Notes: a model not told the origin generated them from the letters alone. A DNA stretch of 64,000 nt from Thermodesulfovibrionales bacterium (GCA_049799315.1 JBARHQ010000020.1:21085-85084); one strand, 5' to 3'. Positions 46,301-62,467 are shown, counted from the first letter of the stretch. Numbers and translations: made by a program.

Positions 46301-46343
46301 GAAGCTTCCCGGGATTTCCTGGAAACAGGCGAGGATTATCATC

Positions 46344-46362
46344 CCCTCTTTGGCAAAGAGGG
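46344..46362 (+). terminator. 8-bp-stem hairpin downstream of the SurA-like gene
   Basis: ccctcttt-ggc-aaagaggg. The T-tract follows only after about 10 nt (gattttctg), so it may instead be a repeat-element hairpin. Confidence 0.3.
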
Positions 46363-46885
46363 TGAGGGGAGATTTTCTGAATAATATGCGCAACGGTGAG
46401 ACTGTTAATATCTCCGGTGTGGCAAGCACCGGAAAAGCACCCGAGTTTGTTCAGCATAATACCGGACGAAACTTATCGGGTAGTTCTATTGACCAGGACG
46501 ATTCTCAGTCCTCGCGATGTCTTCCTGAAAGCCCACACTATAGCGTTTCTGCTACAGACGCAACGTTTCTTTCCGAAACAAACGTCCACCAGACTGCAAC
46601 TCGGTGAGATGTACGCCTCCAAGTCCGCAAAATAAATATCGCCTCTGCTGCCTCGCCTTCTCCCTAAAATCTGCTGGAACTGCCTGAGCTGTATCGATGA
46701 AACTTTCATCCGGAATTGTTGTGACTGCCCGTACAACCCGTACATGAAATCATCACCCTTTAACGATCTGTCATGTCTGTCTATTGAATTTGACTGACAA
46801 TGTCTTCTCGGACATGACTACATTGTGGCCGATATTTCTGTTGTTGTGTAAAATATATTATTCCAGACCGAGCGGAGGAGCAGAT

Positions 46886-48115: not shown

Positions 48116-48179
48116 CGGAGACAGGATGTCGTTGCAGGAAGACAAAATGTAATTCATAGGTATAATACATATATACACT

Positions 48180-49016
48180 ATGAGACTACTTAGACCGGCG
48201 AATTATCTAAACTTATTGTTACTTGCAATCTTTTGTGTGTGTGCCACATTCCAACCAGCAAGTGCCGAAACTCTTACAGCAAGCGGATGCTCGATAAGCA
48301 TGAAGGGTTATCTGACTGACCTTGCCAAAGAATATGAGCGGAGAACCGGCGTAAAAGTATTGCTTCATAGCAGCGGCACGCTTGGCGGCGTCGAGGATTT
48401 GAGAGCCGGTAAAGTCGACTTCGCCGCGTCGTGCAGATCCAGAACGGCAGGTGACCCTGAAAACATTGAGTTTATCCAGGTTGCCTGGGGTGCACTGGTA
48501 TTTATCACGCACAAGAGTAATAAAGTCAGCAATGTTTCTCTTGACCAAGTCAGAGCGATCTATGCGGGACAAATCACAAATTGGAAACAGCTCAACGGTG
48601 ACGATGCTCCGATCGAGATATTTATTGCAAAGGGTAAAATAGGCCTCAGCGGCGTTGAGAGTTCACTGAGAGAAATGGTTTTGAAGGGCAAAGAGCCTGT
48701 CCAGACCACTCATACGACGTCCTTGTCCTCATCTGGTTTCGTAGAGCAAACTGTTGAAAAAACTCCTGAGGGATTTGCCACAACCGGGTTCCCAAGTGCC
48801 GTAAAAAGAGCAGTCAAAATTTTAGGGGTCGATGGTGTTTATCCGTCAATCAAGACTATCAGGAATAACAGATATCCTTTGAAAAGACCTTTATTTCTCA
48901 TGGTTCCTCTGAAGCCAAAACCAGAGGTAAGAAAGTTCGTGGATTTTGTCTTGAGCAAGGAGGGTCAGATGTTTATCAGCTCAAGAGGAGTCATCTCACT
49001 CCTTGACCTGAAATAA
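48180..49016 (+). CDS. PstS-family phosphate-binding periplasmic protein (orphan, no pstCAB)
   Basis: 278 aa with signal peptide. PBP-like_2 features (SGTLGG..., YPLKRPLFLMV). Confidence 0.7.
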   Translation: MRLLRPANYLNLLLLAIFCVCATFQPASAETLTASGCSISMKGYLTDLAKEYERRTGVKVLLHSSGTLGGVEDLRAGKVDFAASCRSRTAGDPENIEFIQVAWGALVFITHKSNKVSNVSLDQVRAIYAGQITNWKQLNGDDAPIEIFIAKGKIGLSGVESSLREMVLKGKEPVQTTHTTSLSSSGFVEQTVEKTPEGFATTGFPSAVKRAVKILGVDGVYPSIKTIRNNRYPLKRPLFLMVPLKPKPEVRKFVDFVLSKEGQMFISSRGVISLLDLK

Positions 49017-49049
49017 GCCTAGTGGTTACAAAGCTGTGAATTATTGCTT

Positions 49050-50387
49050 TCAGTGTTTCTTGCCAATGATCTTCCCCACAATGCCTAAAAAGCTTTTTTC
49101 CCGTTTTTCATAAATAATGTCCGTCACATCCCCCATTTCCTGCCCGTGCTTTACAGTCAGTGATGATGATTTTGACATCGACAGGACCTGGCTCGGATAT
49201 ACACTCCTGTGGCCGGTCATAAGGAAACTGATAACACACGCAACGGCTGCATAAGGTGCGACAGCGGGTCCGAAAAGTTCAACTGCCATAATGCTTGCAG
49301 AGATAGGGGTATTAGCAGCCCCTGCCAGAAGGCTGACCATGCCGATAGCCGAGAATACCGCAATATCGAAGCCGGGCAAATGACCAATGAGATTCCCGGC
49401 CGTGGCGCCGACAAAAAAGATAGGAGTAATAATCCCCCCACTGCCGCCAAACCCGAGCGTTATGGATGTAAATAGCATCTTGAGAAATGATGAATACCAT
49501 GGGAGGGAATTGCCTTCAACAGAGGCTTTGATTGTCTCAAGACCTAAGCCGAGATATGAAGTAGAGAAGAAAAAAGTAAGAGCAATCATGACAAGACCTG
49601 CTACAATAGCCTTCCAATGTTCTTTTATGGGAATTTTGTTATTAAGTTTCTCAAGAAATTTTAGCATTTCAATGAATATCAACGAACAAACGCCAAAGAA
49701 AATCCCTGCAACACAGACTTTGAGGAAAAAAAGACTGCTAAAAGCAGCATTGAAGCTGAGAGACTGATGAAAATAGCTGATTCCAAGAGCAGACGACACT
49801 TGATATCCGATAACACCGGCAACAAAAGAGGGAAGAAGAACATCATAAAGTAATCCGCCGACAAAGAGGACCTCAACCCCGAAAATTGCTCCAGCAATGG
49901 GGGTACCAAAGACAGTTGCAAACCCGGCGCTGATACCACAGATAACCAGTTTCCTGCGGTCTCTCTTGCCGAATCTAAACAGATCAGCAAATCCTGAGCA
50001 GAGAGCTGCCCCGATCTGAGCCGCTGGCCCCTCTTTTCCTGCTGATCCACCACAGGATATGGTTACCACTGTAGCAAGGAGTTTGACCGGCACAACAGAG
50101 AGTTTGATCTTCCCGGAATTCCTGTGAACGGCTTCAATGATTTTTTCGGTGCCATGGCCACGAGCATCAGGAGCGAAATATTTTACCAATAAAGTGCTGG
50201 CCAGAAGACCAATCGGGACTAACAAATAATAGTAATGGAAAGCTGATACAAGCGCAATGCTTTTATGAAGCACAAGCAGAAAAACGGTAGTGGAGACCCC
50301 CACAATGCTCCCGACGCATACGGCAAGAAGAAGCCACTTTAGAATACTGATAAAAAGAACTGACTCCTCAACGATACGGCGTTTCAT
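49050..50387 (-). CDS. voltage-gated chloride channel family protein (ClC, no CBS domains)
   Basis: GGSAGKEGP, GTPIAGAIFGVEV and GGIITPIFFVGA selectivity-filter-type motifs. Confidence 0.9.
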   Translation of the reverse strand: MKRRIVEESVLFISILKWLLLAVCVGSIVGVSTTVFLLVLHKSIALVSAFHYYYLLVPIGLLASTLLVKYFAPDARGHGTEKIIEAVHRNSGKIKLSVVPVKLLATVVTISCGGSAGKEGPAAQIGAALCSGFADLFRFGKRDRRKLVICGISAGFATVFGTPIAGAIFGVEVLFVGGLLYDVLLPSFVAGVIGYQVSSALGISYFHQSLSFNAAFSSLFFLKVCVAGIFFGVCSLIFIEMLKFLEKLNNKIPIKEHWKAIVAGLVMIALTFFFSTSYLGLGLETIKASVEGNSLPWYSSFLKMLFTSITLGFGGSGGIITPIFFVGATAGNLIGHLPGFDIAVFSAIGMVSLLAGAANTPISASIMAVELFGPAVAPYAAVACVISFLMTGHRSVYPSQVLSMSKSSSLTVKHGQEMGDVTDIIYEKREKSFLGIVGKIIGKKH

Positions 50388-50468
50388 CAGTCGCTACCTA
50401 ACATTGTTTTGTTACGAAGTGATTATTATGAACATCTGATGGTGTGATCCGTTGTCCGCCACTGGGTA

Positions 50469-50894
50469 TCATTGTAGAAACAAGACCTTTAAGCCTTCGA
50501 TTCCTGCAGCGCGGCAGAGGTTAACATCAGTTGAAGAGAAGGCAATTGTGACCTCAAGTCCAGAAGTCTTAATGGCCAGCGCAGCAGATAAGTGCATTGC
50601 TGCCAGCCTGTTTAATCCATATTTTTTTATAAGCTGTCCCGAGTCGAGATCATTGAAGTCTACTACGGCAATGTTGGCCCAGTCGGTGGTAAAGGTTTCG
50701 TAGATTCTTTTATATGCTGCGGAAGACAAATCGCCCTTTTTGTGACGCTTGTCAAGTGCTGCTATCACCTCGCTATATGCAACCCTGCAGGTTGCAATCA
50801 CCTCGGCATTAGCTGCCCATTGGCGTACTACCGGAGTCTGTTCGTCTTCGACATATAACTTGATGAGGCTTGTTGTCCCCAGATAAAGGATCAC
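50469..50894 (-). CDS. vapC: PIN-domain protein, VapC-like toxin (acidic residues partly substituted)
   Basis: 141 aa. GTGA overlap with the antitoxin stop. (V)ILYLGTTSLIKLYVEDE... matches the LYLDTSALVKLY-type VapC family, but has G at the first Asp position. Confidence 0.75.
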   Translation of the reverse strand: MILYLGTTSLIKLYVEDEQTPVVRQWAANAEVIATCRVAYSEVIAALDKRHKKGDLSSAAYKRIYETFTTDWANIAVVDFNDLDSGQLIKKYGLNRLAAMHLSAALAIKTSGLEVTIAFSSTDVNLCRAAGIEGLKVLFLQ

Positions 50895-51151
50895 TGTCTC
50901 TCCTCTAATATAGTCCCGGATAAGGATTTACCCTTAATCCTTATACCTTCGCACCCTTTGGGTTTTCCTCCAGACCACTGCGCTCGTCCAGCTTTTACCA
51001 AGGATAATATGACGCGTCGCTCAAGAGATATCGGGATAATTACAGCTGCCTCTATGCCGTGATCTGTTACGATTATGCTTTCGCCCTCACGTACCTTGCC
51101 AATGTAACTGCTAAGCTTATTTTTCAGTTCACGTATGCCGACATGTTCCAT
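50891..51151 (-). CDS. Phd/YefM (prevent-host-death) family antitoxin
   Basis: MEHVGIRELKNKLSSYIGKVREGESIIVTDHGIEAAVIIPI... is a typical Phd/YefM N-terminus. Confidence 0.85.
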   Translation of the reverse strand: MEHVGIRELKNKLSSYIGKVREGESIIVTDHGIEAAVIIPISLERRVILSLVKAGRAQWSGGKPKGCEGIRIKGKSLSGTILEERQ

Positions 51152-51174
51152 TGAGACCTCTCCGCAATTTTATT

Positions 51175-51184
51175 GTAGCTACAT
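51175..51184. promoter_or_regulatory. 10-bp perfect palindrome TGTAGCTACA upstream of the TA pair (candidate operator)
   Basis: Lies 24 nt upstream of the antitoxin ATG. TA operons are usually autoregulated at such palindromes. Confidence 0.35.
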
Positions 51185-51381
51185 TATAATTTAATATGTT
51201 GCCTTATAGCAAATATATTATGGTATCATTTAAATTATGGTTAATGAGAACAGCTGCTGCAAATACGTTGCAGGGTAAAATTGGATGAAGAGCCACTATG
51301 CGAATCCGCCGTGATCTAGTATTTACTGAGCACGAACAAATAAGGGCGAATTTTAAATCTTAATCACATCAGGAGGAAAAT

Positions 51382-51954
51382 ATGAAGAGAGTCTTAGTTC
51401 TTATCGGAATTGCATTTGTCATGATTGCAGGATGTAGTCACAAAACAAGCAAGCCGGATATACAGGATAATATTGCGAGTAAGCAGGAACAGAAGCGCGA
51501 TACAGGTGACCAGAAAAAAACGGAAAAGATACCTACTGTGCCGGTTGACTCTATAGATTCCAAAAATAATGCTTCTGCAACGATGAGCGTCCAGGACAAC
51601 ATGTTCACTGACATTTTATTTGATTTCGACAAGTACGATATTAAGGAGCAATTCAAACCCACGCTACGCAAGGTGTCGGATTACTTGTCGAAACAGCCTG
51701 AAGCCAGGATATCCATTGAAGGCCATTGTGACGAACGTGGGACCAATGAATATAACCTTGCCCTTGGTGAGCGACGGGCAAAGGCAGTGAAGGAATACCT
51801 GGTAGCGATGGGTGTTGCCTCCAAGCGGACTGATACCATAAGTTATGGTGAGGAGCGGCCTCTTTGTAAAGAAAGTAATGAAGAATGTTGGGCAAAAAAT
51901 AGACGGGCACATTTTGTTGTTTTAGGTGCAGCGGGTGTGCAGCATAAAAAATGA
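51382..51954 (+). CDS. pal: peptidoglycan-associated lipoprotein (OmpA-C family)
   Basis: Lipobox MIAGCS. OmpA_C motifs ILFDFDKYDI...IEGHCDERGTNEYNLALGERRA...ISYGEERP. Confidence 0.85.
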   Translation: MKRVLVLIGIAFVMIAGCSHKTSKPDIQDNIASKQEQKRDTGDQKKTEKIPTVPVDSIDSKNNASATMSVQDNMFTDILFDFDKYDIKEQFKPTLRKVSDYLSKQPEARISIEGHCDERGTNEYNLALGERRAKAVKEYLVAMGVASKRTDTISYGEERPLCKESNEECWAKNRRAHFVVLGAAGVQHKK

Positions 51955-52304
51955 GTGGGACAAAGTATATACTGGTAATTGATCGGGATAAACTGGTCTG
52001 TAGAATCATTAAATTATTTCTGGAGAACACCGGAAAATATCGAGTCACATACTCCACAGATATTGCTAAAGGAATTAAGTCGAGAATGAGTAAAAGAGTT
52101 GAGCTGATTCTATTCGATGATCAGGTCCCACAGTTGGACGGATTAGACTTATCGGATCATGTGCGCAGCAATATGAGAAGACCGGTACCACTGTTACCTA
52201 CTGGAGCCGTGATCGACAGATCAAGACTGAAAATGCCGCATATAGAGCTTAATACGATCATTAATGGGACCATATTGAAAAGAATCGACCAATTGGTTCA
52301 GTAG
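51951..52304 (+). CDS. single-domain response-regulator receiver-like protein
   Basis: 117 aa. ATGA overlap with the pal stop. ILVIDRD... and ELILFDDQVPQLDG resemble REC acidic pocket / phospho-acceptor motifs. It is divergent. Confidence 0.5.
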   Translation: MSGTKYILVIDRDKLVCRIIKLFLENTGKYRVTYSTDIAKGIKSRMSKRVELILFDDQVPQLDGLDLSDHVRSNMRRPVPLLPTGAVIDRSRLKMPHIELNTIINGTILKRIDQLVQ

Positions 52305-52395
52305 TTACGCTATTGAAATAAAGAGACATTATGCCGTTCATGGACTTAACCATAGCTCAATAATGAAACAATTTGTCTTGAAAGGAGGTGATTGT

Positions 52396-52713
52396 ATGAG
52401 GATGATAACATCAATAGTTGCAGTCATGGTTCTAATCATGTTTGTCGGCGGTGCTTTTGCCGTCGGGCCCGGAAAGACTTTGGAATTTGAAGCCAAAGGC
52501 GCAGCAAAAGTCATATTTGATGGCAAGATCCATGCGGATAAAGGAAATAAGTGCAACGCATGCCACACGAAGATATTCCAGATGAAAAAAGGGACTGCAA
52601 AAATAACGATGGCGGATATTAACGCCGGGAAGTTCTGTGGAGAATGTCACAACGGTAAAACTGCATTCAAGGCAAGTGAGGCAGCAAACTGCGCTAAGTG
52701 TCACAAGAAATAA
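52396..52713 (+). CDS. tri-haem c-type cytochrome (c7 / c3 family)
   Basis: Start MRMITSIVAV... with AAAGGAGGTG upstream. Signal peptide. Three CxxCH motifs (CNACH, CGECH, CAKCH) in a mature protein of about 85 aa. Confidence 0.8.
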   Translation: MRMITSIVAVMVLIMFVGGAFAVGPGKTLEFEAKGAAKVIFDGKIHADKGNKCNACHTKIFQMKKGTAKITMADINAGKFCGECHNGKTAFKASEAANCAKCHKK

Positions 52714-52731
52714 TTGTCAGCTACTAACCTT

Positions 52732-52755
52732 GAGGCGGCCTGAAGAGGCCGCCTC
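52732..52755 (+). terminator. GC-rich hairpin terminator after the cytochrome gene
   Basis: gaggcggcc-tgaaga-ggccgcctc lies 19 nt after the stop. It is followed by an A/T-rich sequence but not a clean T-run. Confidence 0.55.
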
Positions 52756-52870
52756 ACATATATTCATTCAGAAAGAAGATGGATTTATTACTCCGGCCTA
52801 TAAAAACAAACTTGATGAATATCCAACTAATCATTATCTACTCATGAGGGTTTAGGCACTACTTACAGGT

Positions 52871-55120
52871 ATGGATACAGAGAGTCGGCATCGAAGAAAA
52901 ATCATAGGAAGTACTGTCAGCGTAGCCATTGGTACGATTTTGTTAACTGCTTCTCTCCTTCCAGAAATGTATGTCGGCAGATCTATACCTCTCAGAATAC
53001 TTATTGCCGCAATGGTAGCGTCGACCGTTTCTGGAATTGCTCTGGGGCTTGCTCTAATCATTCGCTCATTGCCGTTCGTTTTGGGATCAATACTTTTCGG
53101 CTCTGCCGCTGTAATTACTTTTTTTATCGCAAATAGTATCTCAGCCTTTGCCATAATGCCTCTCAGCTCTAATTGGCTACTGACTTTAGGGGCGAGCTTT
53201 ATCCTCAGCCTTGTAATTTTGTGTATTTTTGCTGGTCTTGGTGCTTTGGCTGGTTCTCGAAACAAAATAGTTATTTTTGCTGCTGTAATCTTTATGATTT
53301 TGTTGTTGGGATACGGTATAAGTCTCTTATTGCCAGATTACGGAAGACAAAAGGCCAATGTTGAGGACTTAGTTACGCCTAAAGACAAAGTTACGTTAAA
53401 AGCCCCATTCCCTGCTTCACCAGGGGCATACACTGTCAAGACTCTCTTCTACGGAAACGGCAAGGACAAGCACAGACCTGAGTATGGGGCGCAGACAAAC
53501 ATAATTACCAAACCGGTGAATGCATCACCATTTCTGCCGGAAGGATGGTCAGTAGCGCGCACAGCCTACTGGGGATTCGACCAGACCAGACTGCCCATTA
53601 ATGGCCGAGTATGGGTGCCCGAAGGGAAAGGACCTTTTCCACTGGTGCTGATAGTTCACGGCGCATACAAAATGACTGCACGTTCTGATACAGGTTTTGC
53701 CTATCTTGGTGAACTACTCGCGAGCCGCGGATACATTGTTGCATCAATCGATGAGAACTTTCTTAATTACGGATGGCACAGATATGGCGATTTTGAAGAC
53801 TCTGACATCGACGCACGTGGCTGGCTAGTTCTTCAGCATCTGCGCACATGGCAAAAGTGGAATGATATTGAAACAAACGTATTTTTTAAAAAGGTTGATA
53901 TGCACGATATTGCCTTAATTGGTCATTCACGAGGGGGTGAGGCGATAACTGCGGCAGCATCGTTTAACAGAATGGGGCGTTACCCGAGAAACGGCAGCAT
54001 AGCTTTGGGATTCAATTTCAATATACGGACACTGATAGTTTTCGCACCCAGTGATATATATCAATCTCCCTATGAACGGACCACTCCGGTATCAATGAAG
54101 GATATCAATTACCTACTTTTACTTGGCACTCAAGACAGACAAGTCCCGAGCATTCTTGGCAGCAGGGTTTATCAAAGAATAAAGTTTGCTGACAATGATG
54201 TGTCCTCCAGCAAGCAGTCAAAAGAGAAAAAAAATAGCTACGGCAATTTCATTAAAGCTGCGTTGTATATCCACCGTGCCAATCACAGTCAGTTCAATAC
54301 TTCCTGGGGAATTTACGACTTCCCCTGGCCTTATCGCTTTTTTTCTAATATTGCAGAGCAGCTCAGCGGTTACGATCAGCGTCGGGTTACAGAAATATAT
54401 GTCTCGTCATTCCTGGATGCAACTTTAAAAGGCGATAAAAGATATGTGCCGATCTTCCGCGATTACAGAGTCATTAAGGGCTGGCTTCCCAGAACGGCTT
54501 ATATCAGTCGATTTGAGGATTCATCCTTTCATCTAATCAGCAATTTCGATGAGGACATTGATCCGCAAACAACTACGGTATCCGGGGGGAAAATAATAGG
54601 CCGCAATCTTTCCCACTGGCATGAACAGGACATTGACTATCATTACTACCAGCCTTATGGTTCCCGCAGTAACAGGTTGGTTTCAGTGAGCTGGGAAGCA
54701 CAGACAGGAACTCAGCCCGTTCTTGAATTTGATCTTCCGGCATCACAGGTAACATCTTGGAATATTAAGCCTGAAGATAATCTCGTTTTTTCTATCGCTA
54801 CGCCTGATAGTCAGGCATCTTTTGATATAACTGTATCACTGACTGATACAGCAGGCAGAAGCTCTCAGCTCCCCCTGAGCAAATTTTATGATATCCATGC
54901 TCCGCTTCTTTCCAAGCTTACGAGAATGACACTATTTGAGAAACCCACGCCGGTGCAAATTTTGCAAACCCTCTCTATTCCTTTCACTCGGTTTCTGGAA
55001 ATGAATTCTGCAATTAAACTTAACAAATTAAGCAGGGTCAGCTTTATTTTTGATAAAAATCATTCAGGCACACTCTTGCTCGATGATATCGGCATTGATC
55101 AATCAGTTCCCGAATTGTAA
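52871..55120 (+). CDS. membrane-anchored alpha/beta-hydrolase-fold protein
   Basis: 749 aa. About 5 N-terminal TM segments (to about aa 165), then a soluble region with nucleophile elbow LIGHSRGGEA (GxSxG). No closer family recognised. Confidence 0.65.
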   Translation: MDTESRHRRKIIGSTVSVAIGTILLTASLLPEMYVGRSIPLRILIAAMVASTVSGIALGLALIIRSLPFVLGSILFGSAAVITFFIANSISAFAIMPLSSNWLLTLGASFILSLVILCIFAGLGALAGSRNKIVIFAAVIFMILLLGYGISLLLPDYGRQKANVEDLVTPKDKVTLKAPFPASPGAYTVKTLFYGNGKDKHRPEYGAQTNIITKPVNASPFLPEGWSVARTAYWGFDQTRLPINGRVWVPEGKGPFPLVLIVHGAYKMTARSDTGFAYLGELLASRGYIVASIDENFLNYGWHRYGDFEDSDIDARGWLVLQHLRTWQKWNDIETNVFFKKVDMHDIALIGHSRGGEAITAAASFNRMGRYPRNGSIALGFNFNIRTLIVFAPSDIYQSPYERTTPVSMKDINYLLLLGTQDRQVPSILGSRVYQRIKFADNDVSSSKQSKEKKNSYGNFIKAALYIHRANHSQFNTSWGIYDFPWPYRFFSNIAEQLSGYDQRRVTEIYVSSFLDATLKGDKRYVPIFRDYRVIKGWLPRTAYISRFEDSSFHLISNFDEDIDPQTTTVSGGKIIGRNLSHWHEQDIDYHYYQPYGSRSNRLVSVSWEAQTGTQPVLEFDLPASQVTSWNIKPEDNLVFSIATPDSQASFDITVSLTDTAGRSSQLPLSKFYDIHAPLLSKLTRMTLFEKPTPVQILQTLSIPFTRFLEMNSAIKLNKLSRVSFIFDKNHSGTLLLDDIGIDQSVPEL

Positions 55121-55174
55121 TACTTTATGAAAAAAGCCCCGCTTTATTATTTATACGAACACTTTTGTGCTGCC

Positions 55175-55564
55175 TCAATTGGCGTCGATGCTAAACTTCA
55201 TGGTGGCAGTCTTCCCGCCACGCACCGTCTTTATGGCTATGGTCCAAGATCCGGCCATAGAAATGTTCACCTTGGCCTGATAACTACCCCCCTTCAATGC
55301 CGCATCGGTCTTGTAGTCCTATGCCGGCATCCCCGACATTGCGGGCATTGAGTATTCAACTTTCACTCTGGCGTCGGTAACGGCTTTGCCGGTTGCGTCC
55401 TTGATTTCGATTGTGATATTATTGTCGCCCACAACGGGTGGGTTCTTGTCAATCGTAGCGACAATAGTATACTCACCGGCCTTTTTTGTTACCTCATAAT
55501 TCTTCGCGTACGCAATGCCTGCTATAAAAAGTAGCATCATTGTGACTACCATGGTCTTTTTCAT
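55175..55564 (-). pseudogene. FixH/YtkA-like secreted protein interrupted by an in-frame TAG
   Basis: MKKTMVVTMMLLFIAGIAYA signal (AGGAGAAG SD). ...VKVEYSMPAMSGMPA-TAG(55321-55319)-DYKTDAALKGGSYQAKVNISMAGSWTIAIKTVRGGKTATMKFSIDAN*. Both halves are in one frame and together look like one domain. Confidence 0.6.
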
Positions 55565-56009
55565 TCTTCTTCTCCTACATTTTTTGATCAAGCACACCCT
55601 GGCGCTTGTCTACATCTGGGACATTTGTTTCCTACAGTTTTAATTTATCATTTAACTTTGAACAAAATATGAATTAGATAATTCGGTATGTTGACATGGT
55701 AGGCGTCATCGTGGTGCTGAGGGCAAAAAGCACAACTGGCGAATAACGCGGTGAAGTTCACAGTCTCCAAGTCAATAGAGAGTGAATCATTCCTCCAGCA
55801 AAAGCCATGTTTGACAGCTGAATATTTATATGATAAGACTAAAGAATTAGTCGAGTAACTTGAACGGAGCAAGGAGGTGATGAGAAGCGGCCTTAAAGAT
55901 ATGAGTCATGTTAAATTATGAGCAGATAGTTATGTTTTACCGAAAGTAGTGCTGCGAGACTTAAGAACTGACTTTATAAATCCATCAAACAAAACAGGGA
56001 GGATGTACC

Positions 56010-56453
56010 ATGAAGACGATATTTGTAATAGCCGCTGTAGTTATCTCTACCTTAATTCTGATGCTTTCCGTAGGAACCAATTTCTCGATGGCAGCTGATA
56101 AGATGATGGACAAAGATATGATGATGAAAGATGGCAACGCGATGATGATGGACAAGGGCCAGATGATGATGGATAAGGGCAAAATGATGAAAGAAGGCAT
56201 GATGGATAAGGACGCCATGATGAAGGAAGGCGAGATGATGATGAAGGAAGGCCAGATGATGATGGATAAAGGCTCCGGAATGAAAGACAAGATGATGATG
56301 AAGGCCGGAAAGATGATGATGAAGAATGGTGAGATGATGAAAACCGGTGAAATGGATAAGAAAATGATGAAGAAAGAGGGCCATAAGATGATGAAAGAGG
56401 GCAAAATGATGATGGATAAGGGCAAGAAGATGAAGGAAGAGCCAATGAAATAA
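56010..56453 (+). CDS. secreted methionine-rich repeat protein (about 35 % Met in the mature part)
   Basis: GGGAGGA SD. 28-aa signal peptide (..GTNFSMA/AD). By my count 42 of 119 mature residues are Met, in units such as MMMDKGQ / MMMKEGQ. The three long ORFs on the other strand are repeat artefacts. Confidence 0.75.
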   Translation: MKTIFVIAAVVISTLILMLSVGTNFSMAADKMMDKDMMMKDGNAMMMDKGQMMMDKGKMMKEGMMDKDAMMKEGEMMMKEGQMMMDKGSGMKDKMMMKAGKMMMKNGEMMKTGEMDKKMMKKEGHKMMKEGKMMMDKGKKMKEEPMK

Positions 56454-56710
56454 GATAAGAGGCCCTCAGATAAAGCTTTAAAGCGTCATATTCAGCCTTC
56501 AGAAAGTAGAATATCAGATTCGGATTTATTCGAGATTGTCGTGAGACCCGCTCATGCAACGCTATCGAAATGCCATGGGATTTGAAATTCTCCTGATAAT
56601 CAGAGCCGATGGGACAACCCCTTCCACAACTTGTCCCATCGGCATATTAAGCAACTATTGTTTGTTACAGTGCCGTACTTTTTACGGACGGATTACCCGC
56701 AAATGCAATC

Positions 56711-57073
56711 TTATTGACTCAGCCAACTCTTTGCCTCGGAAAGTTTATCATTGGCAAAAATTCTTACCGGATAGGGGATGATAAACCCGAATATTTTGAC
56801 TGCTTCCACGATCCAGCCGACATCGGAAACAACTGCAATTTTGTCGAATGCAGTGAGATGTTTAAACCCGACTTTGGCATCATCCCACATTGCCGCCGCT
56901 GTAAATTTATCGAAAGCCTGACCTAAGTGGTACAACAAACGAATCTTGGCATGTCTTTTCAGCTTTTCTTCCACCGCCGGAATCAGTATCTTTTCATAGT
57001 CATCGGCGGTTACTGTTCCCTTTGCGCTTACTGCAACGATATCGTCTGGCAGGTCCGGAATAAATTCTATCAT
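56711..57073 (-). CDS. STAS/SpoIIAA-like protein (DUF3478 type)
   Basis: 120 aa: MIEFIPDLPDDIVAVSAKGTVTADDYEKILIPAVEEKLKRHAKIRLLYHLG...KIAVVSD. Confidence 0.7.
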   Translation of the reverse strand: MIEFIPDLPDDIVAVSAKGTVTADDYEKILIPAVEEKLKRHAKIRLLYHLGQAFDKFTAAAMWDDAKVGFKHLTAFDKIAVVSDVGWIVEAVKIFGFIIPYPVRIFANDKLSEAKSWLSQ

Positions 57074-57699
57074 TTGATCCTCCTATGTAAGGTATTGAGG
57101 CAGTCCTGATTATTTTTAGTCTACCGGATAAATCCTATGGTTACAAGTATTATCAATATAGAGCGCTAACATTAGAGATCGAGATGAGGAATCGTAAGCC
57201 TAGGAGACATCCTTGTGTCGGAGAAAACCTTCGGCAGCAGCATTTGAAGGCTTGAGGGTTTTGCCATATCCGAGCCAGGTCTTGTCGATTCAAAATCATC
57301 TTCTATTTCGGTAGAAAAAGGGCATGAGATGTCTGCCATTTTATTTGCTTCATCTCCTAGGACTCAAAAGGAAACACAATAATAGTGGCTATACATAAGT
57401 TTTCTTAAGTGAACTGGTCAACGAAGATTACGACCCGAAGAACGTAAGCCAGTTGTGACATGTTATTTTGGAAATCAACACTGTCGCTGAGAAGGCCGCA
57501 GCGTTGGTTTGTCGGTGAAACCATCTCTGCCTGACAAGACAGCTATGGGGCCAGATAACATCTCAGCGGTCAAAAAACCGAGATTGGGATTATGTGTATG
57601 AAAGGTAAGTCCTGCAGGAGGAGACTGACCTGCCCATGTGATCTGGAACACTATCTAAAGTTACAGTGATAATATTGCGCTATTACTACAAATAAATAT

Positions 57700-57727
57700 T
57701 TGACTATGCAAAAACTCGGGGTATCAT
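57700..57727 (+). promoter_or_regulatory. sigma70-type promoter candidate for the YHS-msrB-msrA operon
   Basis: TTGACT (57700-57705), 16-nt spacer, TATCAT (57722-57727); about 70 nt upstream of the GTG at 57800. Confidence 0.45.
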
Positions 57728-57799
57728 TTAATTATTAATAGCGACCCGATATTTATCGGAGAGAACTATACGGACACATGTGCTTGCGAGGATATTACA

Positions 57800-58282
57800 G
57801 TGGATTTAGGCGTCCTTAAAAAAGGTTTCTTCATAGCTATTATTTCCTCGTCTGCGATCTTCTCATGTTCACATAGCCCCTTCATACCGGCAATTAATGC
57901 CACGTCGGAGGGAGTAGCGATAAAGGGGTATGATCCGGTTGCATATTTCACAGACGGACGGCCGATCAAGGGGAAGCCTGAATTCAAATACGCATGGAAC
58001 ACTGCGGAGTGGAGGTTTTCCAGCTCCGGTCATCTTGAGATGTTTATGCAAGATCCTGAAAAATATGCGCCCAGATACGGGGGCTACTGTGCCTATGCCG
58101 TGGGCCAGGGAAAAACCGCCGATATCGACCCCGACGCATGGACAATTTCTGAAGGAAAGTTATATCTCAATCTGGACATGGATGTGCAGAGATTATGGGG
58201 GAAGGACATGCAGATGTATATCCGAAAGGCCGACGAGAACTGGCCGCGAATGCTTAGCAAAAATAAAGGAGGTATCAAATGA
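57800..58282 (+). CDS. YHS-domain protein (family that also has selenoprotein members), with N-terminal export/anchor segment
   Basis: GTG start with GAGGAT upstream. Hydrophobic N-terminus. AIKGYDPVAYFTDGRPIKG...WRFSS..HLEMFMQDPEKYAPRYGGYCAYAV. Confidence 0.7.
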   Translation: MDLGVLKKGFFIAIISSSAIFSCSHSPFIPAINATSEGVAIKGYDPVAYFTDGRPIKGKPEFKYAWNTAEWRFSSSGHLEMFMQDPEKYAPRYGGYCAYAVGQGKTADIDPDAWTISEGKLYLNLDMDVQRLWGKDMQMYIRKADENWPRMLSKNKGGIK

Positions 58283-58836
58283 AATACTTGACCATATTCT
58301 TGGGGGTCCTGCTGACTGGATTCGTTGCAATCAGCATAGTTTTTTACGGCGGAATGGGAAAACAGGCCGGGGCGACAAGCGTAGCGTCGCCGTCGCCGAT
58401 AAAGGTGTATTCAGCTGAAAAAGGAGGCTACATCATGAGCGAAACAGTTGTTAAAACCGAAGAAGAGTGGAAAAAACTTCTGACGCCGGAACAGTTCCAT
58501 ATCCTGCGGAAAAAAGGGACTGAGCGGGCATTCTCCGGAATATACGACAAGAATTATGAGCACGGCATATACCGTTGTGCGGGCTGCGGCCTCGATCTTT
58601 ACAGGTCTGAAGACAAATTCGATTCCGGCACCGGCTGGCCGAGTTTCACGATGCCGATCGCTCCTGAGAACATCATCACCAGACCGGACAACAGCTTCTT
58701 CACTCATCGCACCGAGGTGGTCTGTCGCCGCTGCAACGGTCATATCGGTCATGTCTTTGACGATGGCCCGAAGCCGACCGGGCTGCGCTACTGCATGAAT
58801 TCAGCTGCCCTGCAATTCGTGGCGACCAAAAAATAA
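58279..58836 (+). CDS. msrB: peptide-methionine (R)-S-oxide reductase MsrB with N-terminal TM anchor (long form)
   Basis: ATGA overlap with the YHS gene stop and AAAGGAGG upstream. TM segment YLTIFLGVLLTGFVAISIVFYGG. MsrB motifs CAGCG, CRRCNGHIGHVFDDGP and RYCMNSAAL. A second SD+ATG lies in frame at 58435. Confidence 0.85.
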   Translation: MKYLTIFLGVLLTGFVAISIVFYGGMGKQAGATSVASPSPIKVYSAEKGGYIMSETVVKTEEEWKKLLTPEQFHILRKKGTERAFSGIYDKNYEHGIYRCAGCGLDLYRSEDKFDSGTGWPSFTMPIAPENIITRPDNSFFTHRTEVVCRRCNGHIGHVFDDGPKPTGLRYCMNSAALQFVATKK

Positions 58837-58862
58837 GCGGGTACCAACAGGGAGGAGACACA

Positions 58863-59471
58863 ATGAAAATGCTCATTATCACGATCATGGGATTGTCGTT
58901 GATACTCATCGCAATTACCCCAGTTATTGCTGCAACTAATCTTGAGAAAGCGACTTTTGCAGGTGGATGTTTCTGGTGCATGGAGCACCCGTTCGACGAG
59001 ATTCCAGGTGTTGTTTCGGTCACCTCTGGCTACACTGGCGGACAGAAAAAGAATCCCACTTATAAAGAAGTCTCGGCCGGAGGAACTGGGCATGCTGAGT
59101 CAGTTCAGGTCGTCTATGATCCGTCAAAGGTGACCTACGAGAAGCTCTTGAACGTTTTTTGGCACAACATCGACCCGACTGCCGAAGATCGACAGTTCTG
59201 TGATTCAGGGCATCAGTATAGAAGCGCTATTTTCTATCATACTGAAGAACAGCACCCGGTGGCGGTCCAGTCGAAGTCTCTATTGGAGAAGAACAAACCC
59301 TTCAAGGGACGGGTTGTGACTGAGATTGTGCAGGCCACCGAGTTTTACCCAGCCGAGGATTATCACCAGCACTATTACAAGAAAAACCCGATCCGTTACA
59401 AATTCTACCGGACTAACTGCGGTCGTGACCGTCGGCTTAAGGAGTTGTGGGGTAGCGACGCGGGCCATTGA
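58863..59471 (+). CDS. msrA: peptide-methionine (S)-S-oxide reductase MsrA with signal peptide
   Basis: Signal MKMLIITIMGLSLILIAITPVIAA. Catalytic GGCFWCMEH. Remainder is typical MsrA (GHAESVQVVYDP...). Confidence 0.9.
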   Translation: MKMLIITIMGLSLILIAITPVIAATNLEKATFAGGCFWCMEHPFDEIPGVVSVTSGYTGGQKKNPTYKEVSAGGTGHAESVQVVYDPSKVTYEKLLNVFWHNIDPTAEDRQFCDSGHQYRSAIFYHTEEQHPVAVQSKSLLEKNKPFKGRVVTEIVQATEFYPAEDYHQHYYKKNPIRYKFYRTNCGRDRRLKELWGSDAGH

Positions 59472-59618
59472 GAAAGGATAATTAGGCATGCCAAGGGATA
59501 TTCCGATAGGGAATGGCCGGTTGAAGAGGCCCCACGAAGTTAAACAACTTCCTTTACGCAAACAGTACGCCAAAAGACGTCATATTTCACCGAGGATCGA
59601 TGATTAGTTGGTGAAGAG

Positions 59619-60533
59619 TTATTCAACTCGGATCATATAGCTTGTGGTGATTATCTCGCTCCCGTATCCCACCTGCCCAAATATTTGATATAAGCCTGCA
59701 GCAGGGAAAATAGCATGAACTTCAATTTTAGGACCGAATTTATCGGGAACTGTCATCTTCATCTGCATGTGATGTTCATGATGCCCCATAGCTGGCATCC
59801 CAGGCAGTTCGCCATGAGCGTGAATGAAATGTGTGAGATCCCCCGATATTATCGCAAGATGCATTGGTGCCGAGAGCCAAGGTTCCAGTTTGGTGACAGG
59901 TTCTCCATTCTTTGTGAACGTATAACTGAGTGTAACTTCTTTCCCTGAAGTTATGCGCTCAGGAGTGGTCGCAAACGTAACATCAAGACCCCCAAATCTC
60001 TTTTTCCTGGAATAATCCTGTTTTGTAGGTCCCATCCTAGGTTCACCAGCAACATCAACCACGAAATGTTTCGAAAGCGGTGAATCATTGACGGCAAAGT
60101 CGATTCCGACGATATAACGACCAGCTTTTGGAAAGGTAAATCGTACAGGGTAGAGAGCGGTTTTTTTCATCTCGGGTGTTATCGGTCCGAAATCCTGAGG
60201 ATGAATGTGGGCAAAGACATCGAAATCCTGACTCGCAATTATGACGTGTATAAGTCTATCATGGTGTATAGTTAGGCCCTCTACAGGTTTCCCTTTGCTA
60301 TCCTTGAACGAAAACATGATAGCTGTGGGCGTCCCCACTGTAATATGCTCCGGTTCCGTTTTAATGCCTGCAATAATGTTATTTCCACCTTCGCCCTGTA
60401 TTTTTTGCATGTCCTTGTGCTGATGACCCTGCATTCCGCTCATCTCTGCAAAAACTTGGGTTGCGCCTAAGATAAGGAGTCCGCCAAAGAACATTGTGCC
60501 TGTCATTGCCAAAATCTTTTTTATTTTATTCAT
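59619..60533 (-). CDS. secreted two-domain His/Met-rich protein (probable metal-binding)
   Basis: 304 aa with signal peptide. EMSGMQGHQHKDMQ near the N-terminus. Repeated domains each end in an HxH-type motif (FAHIHPQDFGP; FIHAHGELPGMPAMGHHEHHMQMKM). No family name recognised. Confidence 0.6.
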   Translation of the reverse strand: MNKIKKILAMTGTMFFGGLLILGATQVFAEMSGMQGHQHKDMQKIQGEGGNNIIAGIKTEPEHITVGTPTAIMFSFKDSKGKPVEGLTIHHDRLIHVIIASQDFDVFAHIHPQDFGPITPEMKKTALYPVRFTFPKAGRYIVGIDFAVNDSPLSKHFVVDVAGEPRMGPTKQDYSRKKRFGGLDVTFATTPERITSGKEVTLSYTFTKNGEPVTKLEPWLSAPMHLAIISGDLTHFIHAHGELPGMPAMGHHEHHMQMKMTVPDKFGPKIEVHAIFPAAGLYQIFGQVGYGSEIITTSYMIRVE

Positions 60534-60626
60534 TTAAATTATCTCCTTTAACTTCGTGATGCTAATGACCTGCTGTGCGATAGCAAGTGTAGCCAAATGT
60601 GGGGTCAAATACGTGATTCAGTCGTC

Positions 60627-60635
60627 ATTCCACAA
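60627..60635. repeat. left 9-bp target-site duplication ATTCCACAA
   Basis: Identical 9-mer directly flanks both IS ends (60627-60635 and 61961-61969). Confidence 0.8.
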
Positions 60636-61960
60636 CAGTGCTGTCCGGTTAAAAAACCGCTGAACACTTAAAACTATATGACAGATAAGAATATTTGCAA
60701 TATTTTTAGTGGTGTCGACTTGAATACACGTCGACGAATGGGCAATCCTTTCGGAACTGAGATTTCCGGAGGTCCCAATGTACACTGGCAAAACCCTATT
60801 TGCGCAAATCATGGATTTTCTTCCTTGGAGCACATTTCATCGTATCGTTACTCGCTATGGAGGCGACCATCGTATTCGTACCTTTCGCTGCACGGAGCAG
60901 TTTCGGATTCTGGCGTTCGCCCAATTGACCTATCGGGAGAGTCTGCGCGACATAGAGGCGTGCCTGATGGCTCAGACATCGAAGCTCTATCATATGGGTA
61001 TCAGTGGAGCGATTTCTCGATCGACTCTGGCCGACGCAAACGAATCCCGCGACTGGCGCATCTACGCCGATTTTGCACAGAGACTGATCGCTCAAGCAAG
61101 ACGGCTCTATGCAGGCGAGGATTTGGGACTCGACCTTTCCAACACGGTTTATGCTCTGGACTCCACGACCATCGATCTTTGTCTTTCGGTGTTTCCATGG
61201 GCTCCATTCCGCGATACAAAAGCAGCGGTCAAAGTCCATACTCTCTTGGATCTCAAGGGTGCAATCCCGAGTTTCATCCATATCACCGACGGCAAGTGGC
61301 ACGACATCAACATGCTCGACCTGCTTGTTCCGGACCCCGGAGCGTTCTACATTATGGATCGAGCATACATGGACTTTGCTCGCCTCTATGCGTTGCACCG
61401 GGCAGGAAGTTTTTTCGTGACCCGCACGAAGTCGAACCTCAATGCGAGGCGCGTATACTCTGCGTCCGTCGACCGGTCCTCTGGCATTATCTGCGACCAG
61501 AGCATTATGTTGAACGGCTACTACAGTCATTGTCATTACCCCGAACATTTGCGTCGTATTCGCTTCAAAGATACCGAGAGAGACAAAACGCTGATCTTTC
61601 TTACCAACAACACGACCCTGCCGGCACTCACTATTGCTGCCCTCTACAAAAGCCGTTGGCAGATCGAACTGTTCTTCAAATGGATCAAACAGCATCTTCG
61701 CATCAAACGGTTTTATGGCACATCGGAAAACGCAGTGAAGACCCAAATCTGGATCGCCGTTTCCATGTATGTCCTCATCGCCATCATAAAGAAAAAGCTC
61801 AATCTCGATACGTCCCTTTATACATTGTTACAGATTCTCTCGATTACCCTTTTCGAGAAAATGCCTTTACAACAAGCATTTCAGACCACCGGAGAACGCT
61901 CAGCTATGCTCGAAAACCAAAACCAGTTGAATTTATTCACTTCTTAACCGGACACTAGTG
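60636..61960 (+). mobile_element. IS4-family insertion sequence (1325 bp), apparently intact
   Basis: Terminal inverted repeats CAGTGCTGTCCGGTTAA (60636-60652) and TTAACCGGACACTAGTG (61944-61960), 14/17 complementary. Single DDE transposase ORF. 9-bp direct repeats flank the element. Confidence 0.85.
60778..61947 (+). CDS. IS4-family DDE transposase (DUF4372-type N-terminus)
   Basis: 389 aa. MYTGKTLFAQIMDFLPWSTFHRIV...ALDSTTIDL...YIMDRAY...YKSRWQIELFFKWIKQHLRIK (Y-R-E-K signature). Confidence 0.9.
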   Translation: MYTGKTLFAQIMDFLPWSTFHRIVTRYGGDHRIRTFRCTEQFRILAFAQLTYRESLRDIEACLMAQTSKLYHMGISGAISRSTLADANESRDWRIYADFAQRLIAQARRLYAGEDLGLDLSNTVYALDSTTIDLCLSVFPWAPFRDTKAAVKVHTLLDLKGAIPSFIHITDGKWHDINMLDLLVPDPGAFYIMDRAYMDFARLYALHRAGSFFVTRTKSNLNARRVYSASVDRSSGIICDQSIMLNGYYSHCHYPEHLRRIRFKDTERDKTLIFLTNNTTLPALTIAALYKSRWQIELFFKWIKQHLRIKRFYGTSENAVKTQIWIAVSMYVLIAIIKKKLNLDTSLYTLLQILSITLFEKMPLQQAFQTTGERSAMLENQNQLNLFTS

Positions 61961-61969
61961 ATTCCACAA
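61961..61969. repeat. right 9-bp target-site duplication ATTCCACAA
   Basis: See the left copy. Confidence 0.8.
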
Positions 61970-62002
61970 GTCTCTTTACTCAAAAATGTTTTTTTAAAGC
62001 CA

Positions 62003-62467
62003 TCATATTTCTTCTGTCACAAGCTGGTCTTTGATTGCGATGCAGCCGATCACGCTCTGGGCCGCTGGGCAGAGGTGCAGATATGATGAGAATGCCTCCC
62101 GGGCTGCTCCGATCTGTTCTTTCGAGACTTTCAGGTGATAGGTGACTCGTATCGCGGTCATTTTTAGCACTCCATTGACGTTTTCGATATCGCCCTCTCC
62201 CTCAGCCCTATACCGGTCTTCTCTAGTAAAGATTTTCTTTCCGGCCAACACTGTGGCCAGTGTACCCATCATTCAGGCGGCAGTGGCAGCAATAATATGG
62301 TCGAGCGTTGCTGCATGCTCCTCTTCAGGCTCGACCTTGTAAAACCTCTTGATTCCCCCGTGGACACCATAATAGACAGGCTCGTTGAATCCCTCGATCA
62401 TCGCCCTTCTGGTCGGGCCTTTCTCTCTAACGATCGTCACGCGTGACGTATGAACAATCTCTCCCAT
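62003..62467 (-). CDS. OsmC-family peroxiredoxin-like protein with in-frame TGA at the catalytic Cys position (candidate selenoprotein, or pseudogene)
   Basis: Track ORFs 62273-62467 and 62003-62272 are contiguous in one frame: ...TLDHIIAATAA-TGA(62275-62273)-MMGTLATVLAGKK...SSYLHLCPAAQSV... OsmC proteins have ..A(L/A)A(G/A)C.. at this position and a second C-P motif near the C-terminus. A hairpin lies 13-35 nt after the TGA. Confidence 0.65.

Follow-up and report, generated by a model that had tools for sequence, protein, structure and literature searches.

The 64,000-nt stretch of Thermodesulfovibrionales bacterium DNA considered here (GCA_049799315.1 JBARHQ010000020.1:21085-85084; called the window, at its full length) encodes, between positions 55175 and 60533, a small methionine-rich (Met-rich) repeat protein with a signal peptide and, further along the same strand, a YHS-domain protein and the two methionine sulfoxide reductases MsrB and MsrA, both with export-type N-termini. 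A first-pass annotation, made from the sequence alone, had grouped these with other nearby genes as one six-gene, methionine-centered neighborhood; all of the genes and motifs it listed are present where it placed them. Judged by comparison with related loci, the conserved core is smaller, consisting of the Met-rich protein and yhs-msrB-msrA, with a neighboring 304-aa protein and a STAS-domain protein falling outside it. The features of this core are (plus strand in each case):

55871-55941, + strand: partly conserved block upstream of the Met-rich gene (alignment of 12 loci)
56010-56453, + strand: gene for the Met-rich repeat protein (open reading frame, composition); core part
57700-57727, + strand: candidate sigma-70-like promoter of yhs-msrB-msrA (consensus scan)
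57800-58282, + strand: yhs, first gene of the operon (NF041384, PF04945); core or accessory part
58279-58836, + strand: msrB (PF01641, TIGR00357); core part
58863-59471, + strand: msrA (PF01625, TIGR00401); core part

The Met-rich gene is built of 21-nt tandem repeats, encoding 7-residue units of the MMMDKGx type, and has a Shine-Dalgarno (SD) sequence (AGGGAGGA) 6 nt upstream of its ATG. Its product is 147 aa long and 30% Met; after a predicted signal peptide (...NFSMA/AD, cleavage at the slash), the mature protein would have 119 aa, including 42 Met (35.3%), 42.9% charged residues (K/D/E/R), 11.8% Gly, one His, and no Cys. It matches nothing in Pfam or NCBIfam, and AlphaFold2 models it as all helix with no tertiary structure, at low confidence (predicted local distance difference test [pLDDT] 61, predicted template modeling score 0.25). 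The family is rare, with 44 clusters at E <= 1e-3 among 1.84 billion representatives, and the homologs are without exception secreted MMMDKGKMM proteins. The ATG/CAT repeats also give rise to incidental open reading frames (ORFs) on the opposite strand; Rfam snoRNA matches inside the gene are well below threshold, and were dismissed as repeat artifacts.

Export was judged from hydropathy, cleavage-site patterns, and conservation in orthologs (including, for MsrB, twin-arginine translocation [Tat] motifs and lipoboxes). As had been noted at first pass, every product of the region but the STAS protein, which has no hydrophobic N-terminus, begins with a hydrophobic, signal-like segment. MsrA (PF01625, 223.3 bits, cut-off 23.7; TIGR00401, 208.7 bits over residues 28-179, cut-off 108.1) has a predicted cleavable signal peptide of the Sec type (...TPVIA/AT) and an SD sequence (GGGAGGAG) 7 nt upstream of its ATG. 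Its catalytic GCFWC, within AGGCFWCMEHPF at residues 33-44, is kept in all aligned orthologs, and those in three of the related loci described below (L015, L093, and L114) all retain an MKMLI...A/xTN signal. MsrB (PF01641, 169.5 bits; TIGR00357, 186.6 bits) has its catalytic Cys in RYCMNS (GLRYCMNSAAL) and two CxxC pairs (CAGC and CRRC), as in the Zn type. Instead of the canonical GCGWPSF, with its resolving Cys, the window protein and all of its orthologs have SGTGWPSF; it is therefore of the 1-Cys type, but remains a member of the MsrB family.

Residues 1-27 of MsrB are hydrophobic. A long, anchored form is favored over initiation at the internal Met53 by the ATGA overlap between the yhs stop and msrB start codons, by the strong SD sequences of msrB (AAGGAGGT, 6 nt upstream of the ATG) and of msrA, which begins 26 nt downstream of msrB, and by the promoter candidate (TTGACT-16 nt-TATCAT, ~70 nt upstream of the yhs start, a match to the consensus only, at 10 of 12 positions). 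An N-terminal extension is also kept in the MsrB orthologs, where it takes the form of a Tat signal plus lipobox (L093, L114), a lipobox alone (L015, L112), or a Sec signal (L030). By these indications, both enzymes would act outside the cytoplasm.

The YHS protein (NF041384, 163.7 bits, cut-off 70; also matching PF04945) has no PDB sequence match. Its N-terminal hydrophobic segment includes a lipobox-like IFSC, making it a probable lipoprotein. At its Cys97 (GGYCAY), seven homologous loci have an aligned in-frame TGA, identifying this position as a Cys/selenocysteine site, of which the window has the Cys form.

Conservation of the linkage was examined from two anchors. A scan for YHS proteins, one genome per species, yielded 80 loci, whose ORFs were searched with all window proteins (phmmer); a metagenome scan with an alignment of the Met-rich family yielded 46 contigs, forming 33 groups at 90% identity. 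In one of the YHS-anchored loci (L015, from an uncultured Nitrospiraceae metagenome-assembled genome [MAG]), a single strand encodes a response regulator (RR), a histidine kinase (HK), and DUF7482, YHS, Met-rich, MsrB, MsrA, and DedA proteins followed by an FAD disulfide reductase; identities to the window proteins are 57% for YHS, 73% for the Met-rich protein, 76% for MsrB, and 88% for MsrA. Another (L014) has YHS and Met-rich genes together at a contig end. A third (L027, a Nitrospirota MAG) has the order RR-HK-MetRich-YHS-cytochrome b561-Oxidored_molyb enzyme, where the best NCBIfam match of the molybdenum (Mo) enzyme is to MsrP, at 97 bits, below the cut-off.

From the Met-rich side, 14 of the 33 groups have a canonical Msr gene or a gene for a Mo enzyme of the sulfite oxidase family, with or without cytochrome b561, no more than 3 kb from the Met-rich gene; among groups with at least 1.5 kb of flanking sequence the proportion is 10 of 19. 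Seven of these (L093, L096, L106, L112, L114, L125, and L134) have canonical MsrA/MsrB or an exported MsrAB fusion, with the fused form in L096, L125, and L134. Seven others have a Mo enzyme only, of 257 aa (MsrP-like, accompanied by cytochrome b561) or of 357 aa. Both kinds of enzyme occur together in L114 (RR-HK-lactonase-like-MetRich-MsrB-MsrA-cytochrome b561-Mo enzyme), and in L093 a di-heme cytochrome c peroxidase adjoins the module. With just a handful of such genes among the thousands in a genome, chance adjacency should account for well under ~2% of cases.

The YHS gene adjoins the Met-rich gene in L014, L015, L027, L092/102/103, L100, and L112. It is present in about half of the MsrAB-type and about half of the Mo-type Met-rich modules, tying it to the module and not to one type of enzyme. 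Among the 80 YHS-anchored loci, its neighbors include a downstream DedA/VTT membrane protein (14 loci), DoxX (12), an FAD pyridine-nucleotide disulfide reductase (8), and an MsrP-like Mo enzyme (5), with MsrA or MsrB no more than 3 kb away in three (L015, L028, L030). No other Met-rich ORFs were found near the YHS genes of other phyla. A YHS gene followed by a DedA/VTT gene, a MerA/Lpd-type FAD reductase gene, or both is found in Verrucomicrobiota, Desulfobacterota, Nitrospirota, and others (L009-L088; for example, L042 411-1985, L032 8434-9975, and L015 10479-12674), an arrangement (periplasmic binder, membrane protein, cytoplasmic reductase) reminiscent of MerP-MerT-MerA.

Two of the metagenomic loci suggest how one enzyme class may give way to another. 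In L092, the Met-rich gene is followed by a 357-aa Mo enzyme with the Tat signal MKRGLTRRDFFRRIGVGTLGLGFGVSVFDGI. In L093, an 83% identical Met-rich gene is followed by an MsrB whose N-terminus, MKNSLSRRDFFKRAGAGAIRLGFGVSLFDGI, precedes a lipobox. The two Tat signals match (SRRDFFKRAGAGAIRLGFGVSLFDGI in the L093 MsrB, TRRDFFRRIGVGTLGLGFGVSVFDGI in the L092 Mo enzyme). The match extends to the DNA, with a 32-nt stretch of 84% identity inside the regions encoding the two signals (8651-8750 for the L093 MsrB, 5639-5735 for the L092 Mo enzyme). The agreement of both protein and DNA indicates that one enzyme took the place of another at this position while the export signal was kept. Such a swap argues for equivalent functions of the enzymes as partners of the Met-rich protein, and also for export of MsrB; it is plausible that a folded, Zn-containing MsrB travels by the Tat route.

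The gene content, the export-type N-termini, the intact catalytic motifs, and the linkage to MsrA/MsrB or Mo enzymes are all directly observed, and on balance they lead us to favor, with moderate confidence, a periplasmic methionine sink and repair unit formed by the Met-rich protein, MsrB, and MsrA, with the YHS protein as a companion. The first-pass annotation had offered such a module, a Cu(I) buffer, or both; the recurring Msr linkage supports the first of these, and leaves the copper alternative (considered below) where it stood. The Met-rich protein, exported by Sec, would present a flexible chain of ~119 residues carrying 42 thioether side chains, and in the periplasm these methionines would be sacrificed to oxidation, sparing essential envelope proteins. 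The oxidants might be H2O2, HOCl-type species, or metal-catalyzed reactive oxygen species, encountered when this bacterium of an anaerobe lineage is exposed to O2. Oxidation would give both sulfoxide epimers, of which the exported MsrA would reduce the S and the anchored MsrB the R form. With both epimers reduced, the Met-rich protein would be a rechargeable oxidant sink, as substrate and scavenger in one: the logic of the MrpX-MsrP system of Azospira, here with thiol-type enzymes. The interchangeability of the neighboring enzyme classes (MsrA and MsrB, separate or fused, and Mo enzymes) is the pattern that a sink and repair module predicts. An oxidative stress gene also lies nearby in the window, a putative OsmC-like selenoprotein gene 1.5 kb away.

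Several observations weigh against this proposal. In the window itself, the Met-rich gene forms a transcription unit of its own, set apart from the msr operon by the unrelated STAS gene, and a comparison of the regions upstream of the Met-rich and yhs genes found no common operator, only short, chance-like two-copy matches. The window MsrB has neither the Tat (RR) motif nor the lipobox Cys of its orthologs, so that its topology rests on a plain hydrophobic segment. Among the Met-rich groups, 19 of the 33 have no Msr or Mo gene nearby, many of these being on very short contigs, and there is no msr gene nearby in L002, L004/5, or L007, which were among the first Met-rich homolog contexts. For the 357-aa Mo enzyme, the score as MsrP (49.5 bits) is lower than that as a SorA-type sulfite dehydrogenase (175 bits), making its sulfoxide reductase activity uncertain. 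Finally, there is the matter of electron supply. Pfam scans of nearly all sizable ORFs, together with regular-expression searches (thioredoxin-type, CcdA-type SPCxxP) of ORFs of at least 80 aa, found no thioredoxin, CcdA, or DsbD in the window, in agreement with the first-pass annotation, the sole WCxxC-type ORF being NuoF; none was found in the Nitrospirota modules L015, L027, L093, and L114 either. Only a Desulfuromonadales locus (L030) has a WCPPC protein, 3 kb from its MsrB.

The characterized exported MsrAB systems all depend on a thioredoxin-fold partner that receives its electrons from CcdA or DsbD (PMC13488963; PMC3914529), and here such a donor may be encoded elsewhere in the genome. 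Less probably, the exported MsrA and 1-Cys MsrB could be recharged without any thioredoxin-CcdA/DsbD pathway, with the single-Cys/selenocysteine YHS lipoprotein as their periplasmic redox partner, fed in related loci by the DedA-family protein and the cytoplasmic FAD disulfide reductase. We consider such a relay quite unlikely. If it does exist, it would represent a previously unrecognized route for reducing power across the inner membrane, and would provide a function for a widespread selenoprotein family. Within the module, the YHS protein could be either a redox partner or a metal handler.

There are other candidate selenoproteins in this setting as well. The OsmC-like gene of the window, of the peroxiredoxin family (62003-62467, - strand), matches PF02566 when its in-frame TGA (62273-62275) is read as Cys. 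The TGA falls at the first active-site Cys (AATAA-U-MMGTLA), and 16 nt downstream of it is a GC-rich hairpin of 7 bp (z -3.3), making this a probable selenoprotein gene with a selenocysteine insertion sequence; on that basis, the organism decodes selenocysteine. Near three of the Met-rich modules there are also genes for MsrA proteins with a 'selenoprotein MsrA helical domain' (L027 3525-4034, - strand; L114 1448-2023, - strand; L134 13111-13674, + strand), assigned by a PF20939 match in L027 and by sequence resemblance in L114 and L134. Their N-termini appear truncated; they are probably selenocysteine-containing cytoplasmic MsrA proteins, with the TGA ending the mechanically called ORF.

The presence of Mo enzymes in some modules raises the possibility of a respiratory or redox-balancing role, in which the Met-rich protein would be a reusable periplasmic electron acceptor or carrier, disposing of electrons rather than defending against oxidants. 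S-oxide reductases can double as respiratory enzymes (reviewed in PMC13488963), and in L027, L101, L114, and L134 the adjoining enzymes would be quinol-linked, Mo-type sulfoxide reductases with a cytochrome b subunit. The MsrA/MsrB versions of the module, however, have no quinol link, and the idea is arrived at by inference alone. Since we also know of no process other than oxidant damage that regenerates protein-bound sulfoxide, we regard this role as extremely improbable.

The other features of the region, which bear on the remaining alternatives, are:

55175-55597, - strand: YtkA/FixH-like gene (PF13115; 55175-55564 as a CrdA-type gene), broken by an in-frame TAG at 55319-55321
56711-57073, - strand: STAS/SpoIIAA-like gene (PF11964, 96.9 bits); outside the module
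59619-60533, - strand: gene for the 304-aa His/Met protein (weak PF13115 match); outside the conserved module
60642-61954, + strand: IS4-family insertion sequence bordering the region (transposase NF033592, 283 bits)

The first-pass annotation was right in describing the first of these as a FixH/YtkA-like gene with an MPAMSGMPA motif, but did not mention the stop codon directly after the motif: the frame reads ...YSMPAMSGMPA and then TAG. When this is read through, the PF13115 score rises from 40 to 71 bits, covering profile positions 2-84 of 85, and the 47 codons downstream fit the family. There are more than 1000 homologs, nearly all of them 129 aa long, with identities of 66-94% and some named CrdA. 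The TAG is at the position of a nearly invariant Met (Met82), for which the closest homolog (94% identical) has ATG; the change from ATG to TAG takes two adjacent substitutions (AT to TA). The identical TAG is found in a second, independent (Logan) assembly of run SRR28041855. The family profile matches PDB entry 9ll2, 'Copper resistance protein' (E 7.9e-15), and in Dissulfurispira thermophila the gene is in the context RR-HK-...-CrdA-OEP-CusB-CusA. By sequence and family, then, this is a CrdA-type copper resistance gene, here a nonsense-interrupted remnant. The near invariance of the Met points to a recent nonsense allele or an error, not to a recoding site; pyrrolysine or programmed read-through was considered and rejected, as the more than 1000 full-length, 129-aa homologs have Met there and none is truncated.

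In two Thermodesulfovibrionia genomes, a gene for a small, secreted, Cys-rich protein is found just upstream of crdA (L139 7569-7970, L140 7588-7989), with an in-frame stop in ...CYVDNHA(A/S)(M/S)*DICLGEA, where the asterisk is the stop. This is possibly a further selenoprotein, belonging to a copper resistance operon.

The 304-aa protein has a signal peptide (...TQVFA/E) and the motifs HIHPQD and GMPAMGHHEHHMQMKM. Its sequence is that of WA610_01885, from a Thermodesulfovibrionales MAG (100% identity), and it has 214 homologs, mostly in Nitrospirota. AlphaFold2 predicts two beta-sandwich domains (pLDDT 79), the N-terminal one weakly resembling the CrdA profile (hhalign probability 39%). A fold search yielded only generic tandem Ig-like matches (TM-score ~0.2), and there is no PDB sequence match. 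It is probably a periplasmic metal-binding protein, with His/Met loops on a tandem beta-sandwich.

These neighbors lead to the principal rival explanation, copper or silver buffering. Methionine-based Cu(I)/Ag(I) sites are found in CusF, in the Mets motifs of Ctr1, and in SilE/PcoE-type proteins. The Met-rich protein might similarly be a Cu(I)/Ag(I) sponge with Met-only sites, whose thioether ligands MsrA and MsrB would keep reduced, with the YHS, CrdA-like, and 304-aa proteins as further handlers of metal. YHS domains do occur in copper ATPases. The YtkA-like neighbor belongs to the CrdA family, whose Dissulfurispira member, as just described, follows a two-component system and lies ahead of OEP-CusB-CusA. 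Divergently upstream of the RR-HK-MetRich-MsrB-MsrA module, both L093 and L114 encode a Cys-rich protein that resembles a metallothionein and includes a YtkA domain; the divergent YtkA-like and Met-rich genes of the window may be the same arrangement with the two-component genes lost. The module HK matches the heavy metal sensor family TIGR01386 over its full length, at 156-171 bits, below the cut-off of 292.55. There is also a precedent in E. coli, where, during copper stress, MsrP restores the Met ligands of CusF (Vergnes et al., 2022, PMC9302797), a citation given correctly at first pass.

The constant partner of the Met-rich gene is, however, a canonical Msr or a Mo enzyme and not a copper exporter: CusCBA, CopA, or a multicopper oxidase is found beside none of the 54 Met-rich loci, and conversely the Dissulfurispira CrdA operon has no Met-rich gene. 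The Met-rich protein has a single His and no Cys, whereas SilE/PcoE-type sponges use both His and Met, and the periplasmic loop of the kinase has no His/Cys cluster. The window has only a broken CrdA-like gene, and loci elsewhere do not link the 304-aa protein to the module. Copper buffering is thus rather unlikely in our view, while remaining the main rival to the rechargeable sink; the two are not mutually exclusive.

A less interesting explanation would be that the genes have no functional link here at all, the region being a mosaic of unrelated envelope genes joined by rearrangement and its methionine theme a coincidence. The layout lends this some weight. There are at least five transcription units on alternating strands, with co-transcription possible only for yhs-msrB-msrA. 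At the border is the IS4 element, with 14-nt terminal inverted repeats (60642-60655 and 61941-61954), which marks the locus as rearranged. Over positions 46000-62000 of the window, GC content drops from 0.53-0.59 in the complex I, TCA, and BamA/TamB region to 0.43-0.49 around the genes considered here, in a stretch that also holds a VapBC pair (50469-51151) and the IS4 element; and the CrdA-like gene is broken. The gene order differs from that of L015, with unequal identities to it (57% for YHS, 88% for MsrA).

The peripheral genes, moreover, have other partners elsewhere. In one related genome (L136), the 304-aa homolog lies between transposases, near Na+/H+ exchanger, ClC, and VapBC genes; these last three are kept in L136, with transposases where the window has its Msr genes. 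In another (L138 7585-8930), the 304-aa gene directly follows a STAS gene in the same orientation, beside an Na+/H+ exchanger fragment. Neither context includes Msr genes. The STAS and 304-aa genes thus go with each other or with ion transport genes rather than with the Msr module. They share a strand in the window, where the yhs-msrBA operon separates them and may have been inserted. The STAS-like protein would from its sequence be cytoplasmic.

Accordingly, all six genes as one conserved cluster was rejected, phmmer searches having found no homolog of the 304-aa or STAS protein in the 80 YHS-anchored and 54 Met-rich-anchored loci; over the 130 related loci, neither occurs close to a Met-rich, YHS, or Msr gene. 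The 304-aa, STAS, and broken CrdA-like genes are bystanders or relics in a lower-GC stretch bearing an insertion sequence. The mosaic explanation therefore holds for the periphery. It does not hold for the core, where a family of just 44 clusters is found beside Msr or Mo enzyme genes in at least 14 groups and two MAGs, and as an account of the whole we think it very doubtful. Of the single neighborhood proposed at first pass, what comparative genomics around the Met-rich homologs upholds is the link between Met-rich protein, MsrB, and MsrA, with frequent YHS; the 304-aa, STAS, and YtkA-like genes drop out of it.

The intergenic regions of the window contain no pseudogene remnants of the RR, HK, lactonase-like protein, or peroxidase of related modules at E < 0.2. 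Elsewhere in the window, no orthologs were found of the two-component system, cytochrome b561, Mo enzyme, DedA, or disulfide reductase that accompany the module in other loci. The window shares the block upstream of the Met-rich gene: ~60 nt, 75-140 nt upstream of the ATG, partly conserved in 12 aligned loci (the window, L015, L091-L093, L096, L098, L100, L101, L114, L120, and L134). In the window this reads AAGGAGGTGAT ... TTATGAGCAGATAGTTATGTTTT, and across loci the pattern is AAAGGAGGTGATA..AATCTTCAGAGGTCAGAGTTGAAGAATGGTGAGCGGGT..TTTTTT. It opens with a perfect extended anti-16S sequence, but there is no start codon at the right spacing. It is possibly a promoter/operator, a regulator site, or a 5' leader. 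A riboswitch or other leader RNA was rejected as a candidate, with no Rfam match, a consensus fold of -1.7 kcal/mol, and no covariation or compensatory changes.

Two further features of the region may be mentioned. Between the convergent Met-rich and STAS genes is a perfect 13-nt inverted repeat (56605-56643: GCCGATGGGACAA, 13 nt, TTGTCCCATCGGC), likely a bidirectional terminator hairpin without a T-run. A 749-aa protein (52871-55120, + strand) has six N-terminal transmembrane segments and a weak match to alpha/beta-hydrolases (chlorophyllase/PETase-like); a 35% identical homolog is encoded at L069 204-2621, 1.8 kb from a YHS gene.

If the favored interpretation is correct, its interest is that the notion of a rechargeable periplasmic methionine sponge so far rests mainly on one proteobacterial system, using the molybdoenzyme MsrP. 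Here there would be three interchangeable enzyme solutions for one Met-rich family (separate MsrA and MsrB, MsrAB fusions, and Mo enzymes with cytochrome b), offering a natural comparison of enzyme types on one candidate substrate, and methionine redox cycling would be a more general envelope defense. It also sharpens the question of what reduces exported thiol-type Msr proteins when no thioredoxin or CcdA partner is encoded alongside, and it places the widespread Cys/selenocysteine YHS protein in a concrete, testable context.

Several known systems have partial resemblances to the one proposed. Helicobacter pylori has a CrdA/CrdRS copper resistance determinant with Cus/Czc-type efflux. The window YtkA-like gene is likewise a 129-aa family member with an MPAMxGMPAM loop; it differs in having neither OEP-CusB-CusA partners nor an adjacent two-component system, and in the TAG at Met82. 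With the MsrP-CusF pair of E. coli (PMC9302797), there is a common element of periplasmic, Met-based metal sites needing a sulfoxide reductase, but the window has no CusF or CusCBA, the type of enzyme and the Met-rich partner are different, and the involvement of copper is circumstantial.

Exported MsrAB proteins (Neisseria PilB, Streptococcus pneumoniae MsrAB2-Etrx-CcdA, and those of Haemophilus influenzae and Fusobacterium nucleatum; PMC3914529; PMC13488963) have thiol-type activities that a signal peptide, lipoprotein signal, or anchor directs out of the cytoplasm, as is predicted for the window proteins. Like the Met-rich modules, these systems are often under a two-component or extracytoplasmic function (ECF) sigma regulator. 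Unlike the fused MsrAB of the PilB/MsrAB2 type, the window MsrA and MsrB are separate proteins, and the dedicated thioredoxin-fold and CcdA/DsbD proteins of that type are encoded in neither the window nor the Nitrospirota modules. A Met-rich partner is present here, and is not described for the exported MsrAB systems in those two sources; no description of such a partner for exported MsrA/MsrB was found in the literature searched.

The strongest likeness in logic is to the MrpX-YedY1Z1 (MsrPQ) system. MrpX of Azospira suillum PS, encoded in yedYZ-mrpX, has a signal peptide and is 20% Met and 44% charged; it is oxidized by hypochlorite, with regeneration by the periplasmic reductase proposed, and some genomes have yedY linked to msrA/msrB (Melnyk et al., 2015, PMC4436054). 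Set beside this published description, the window protein is likewise a small signal-peptide protein of mostly Met and charged residues, encoded beside a predicted periplasmic Msr, and for both a cycle of sacrificial oxidation followed by enzymatic regeneration is proposed. It has more Met (35%), in a regular 7-residue repeat, and the name MrpX is absent among the matches of both protein searches. The two families are apparently unrelated, or very distant, although with sequences of such low complexity a homology comparison would carry little weight. Control by SigF/NrsF in the MrpX system has no counterpart near the window genes, in the form of an ECF sigma/anti-sigma pair; the Met-rich relatives instead have an OmpR-type RR and a HAMP-containing HK, of which the window carries neither. 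The reductase of the MrpX system is the molybdoenzyme MsrP with MsrQ, where here there are thiol-type MsrA and MsrB, apparently exported as separate proteins. The YHS lipoprotein of the Cys/selenocysteine family is also specific to the present system, which is found in Nitrospirota rather than Proteobacteria. What the window encodes would thus be a variant of the MrpX-MsrP kind, with no visible donor, in another phylum, with another reductase chemistry and an added Cys/selenocysteine protein.

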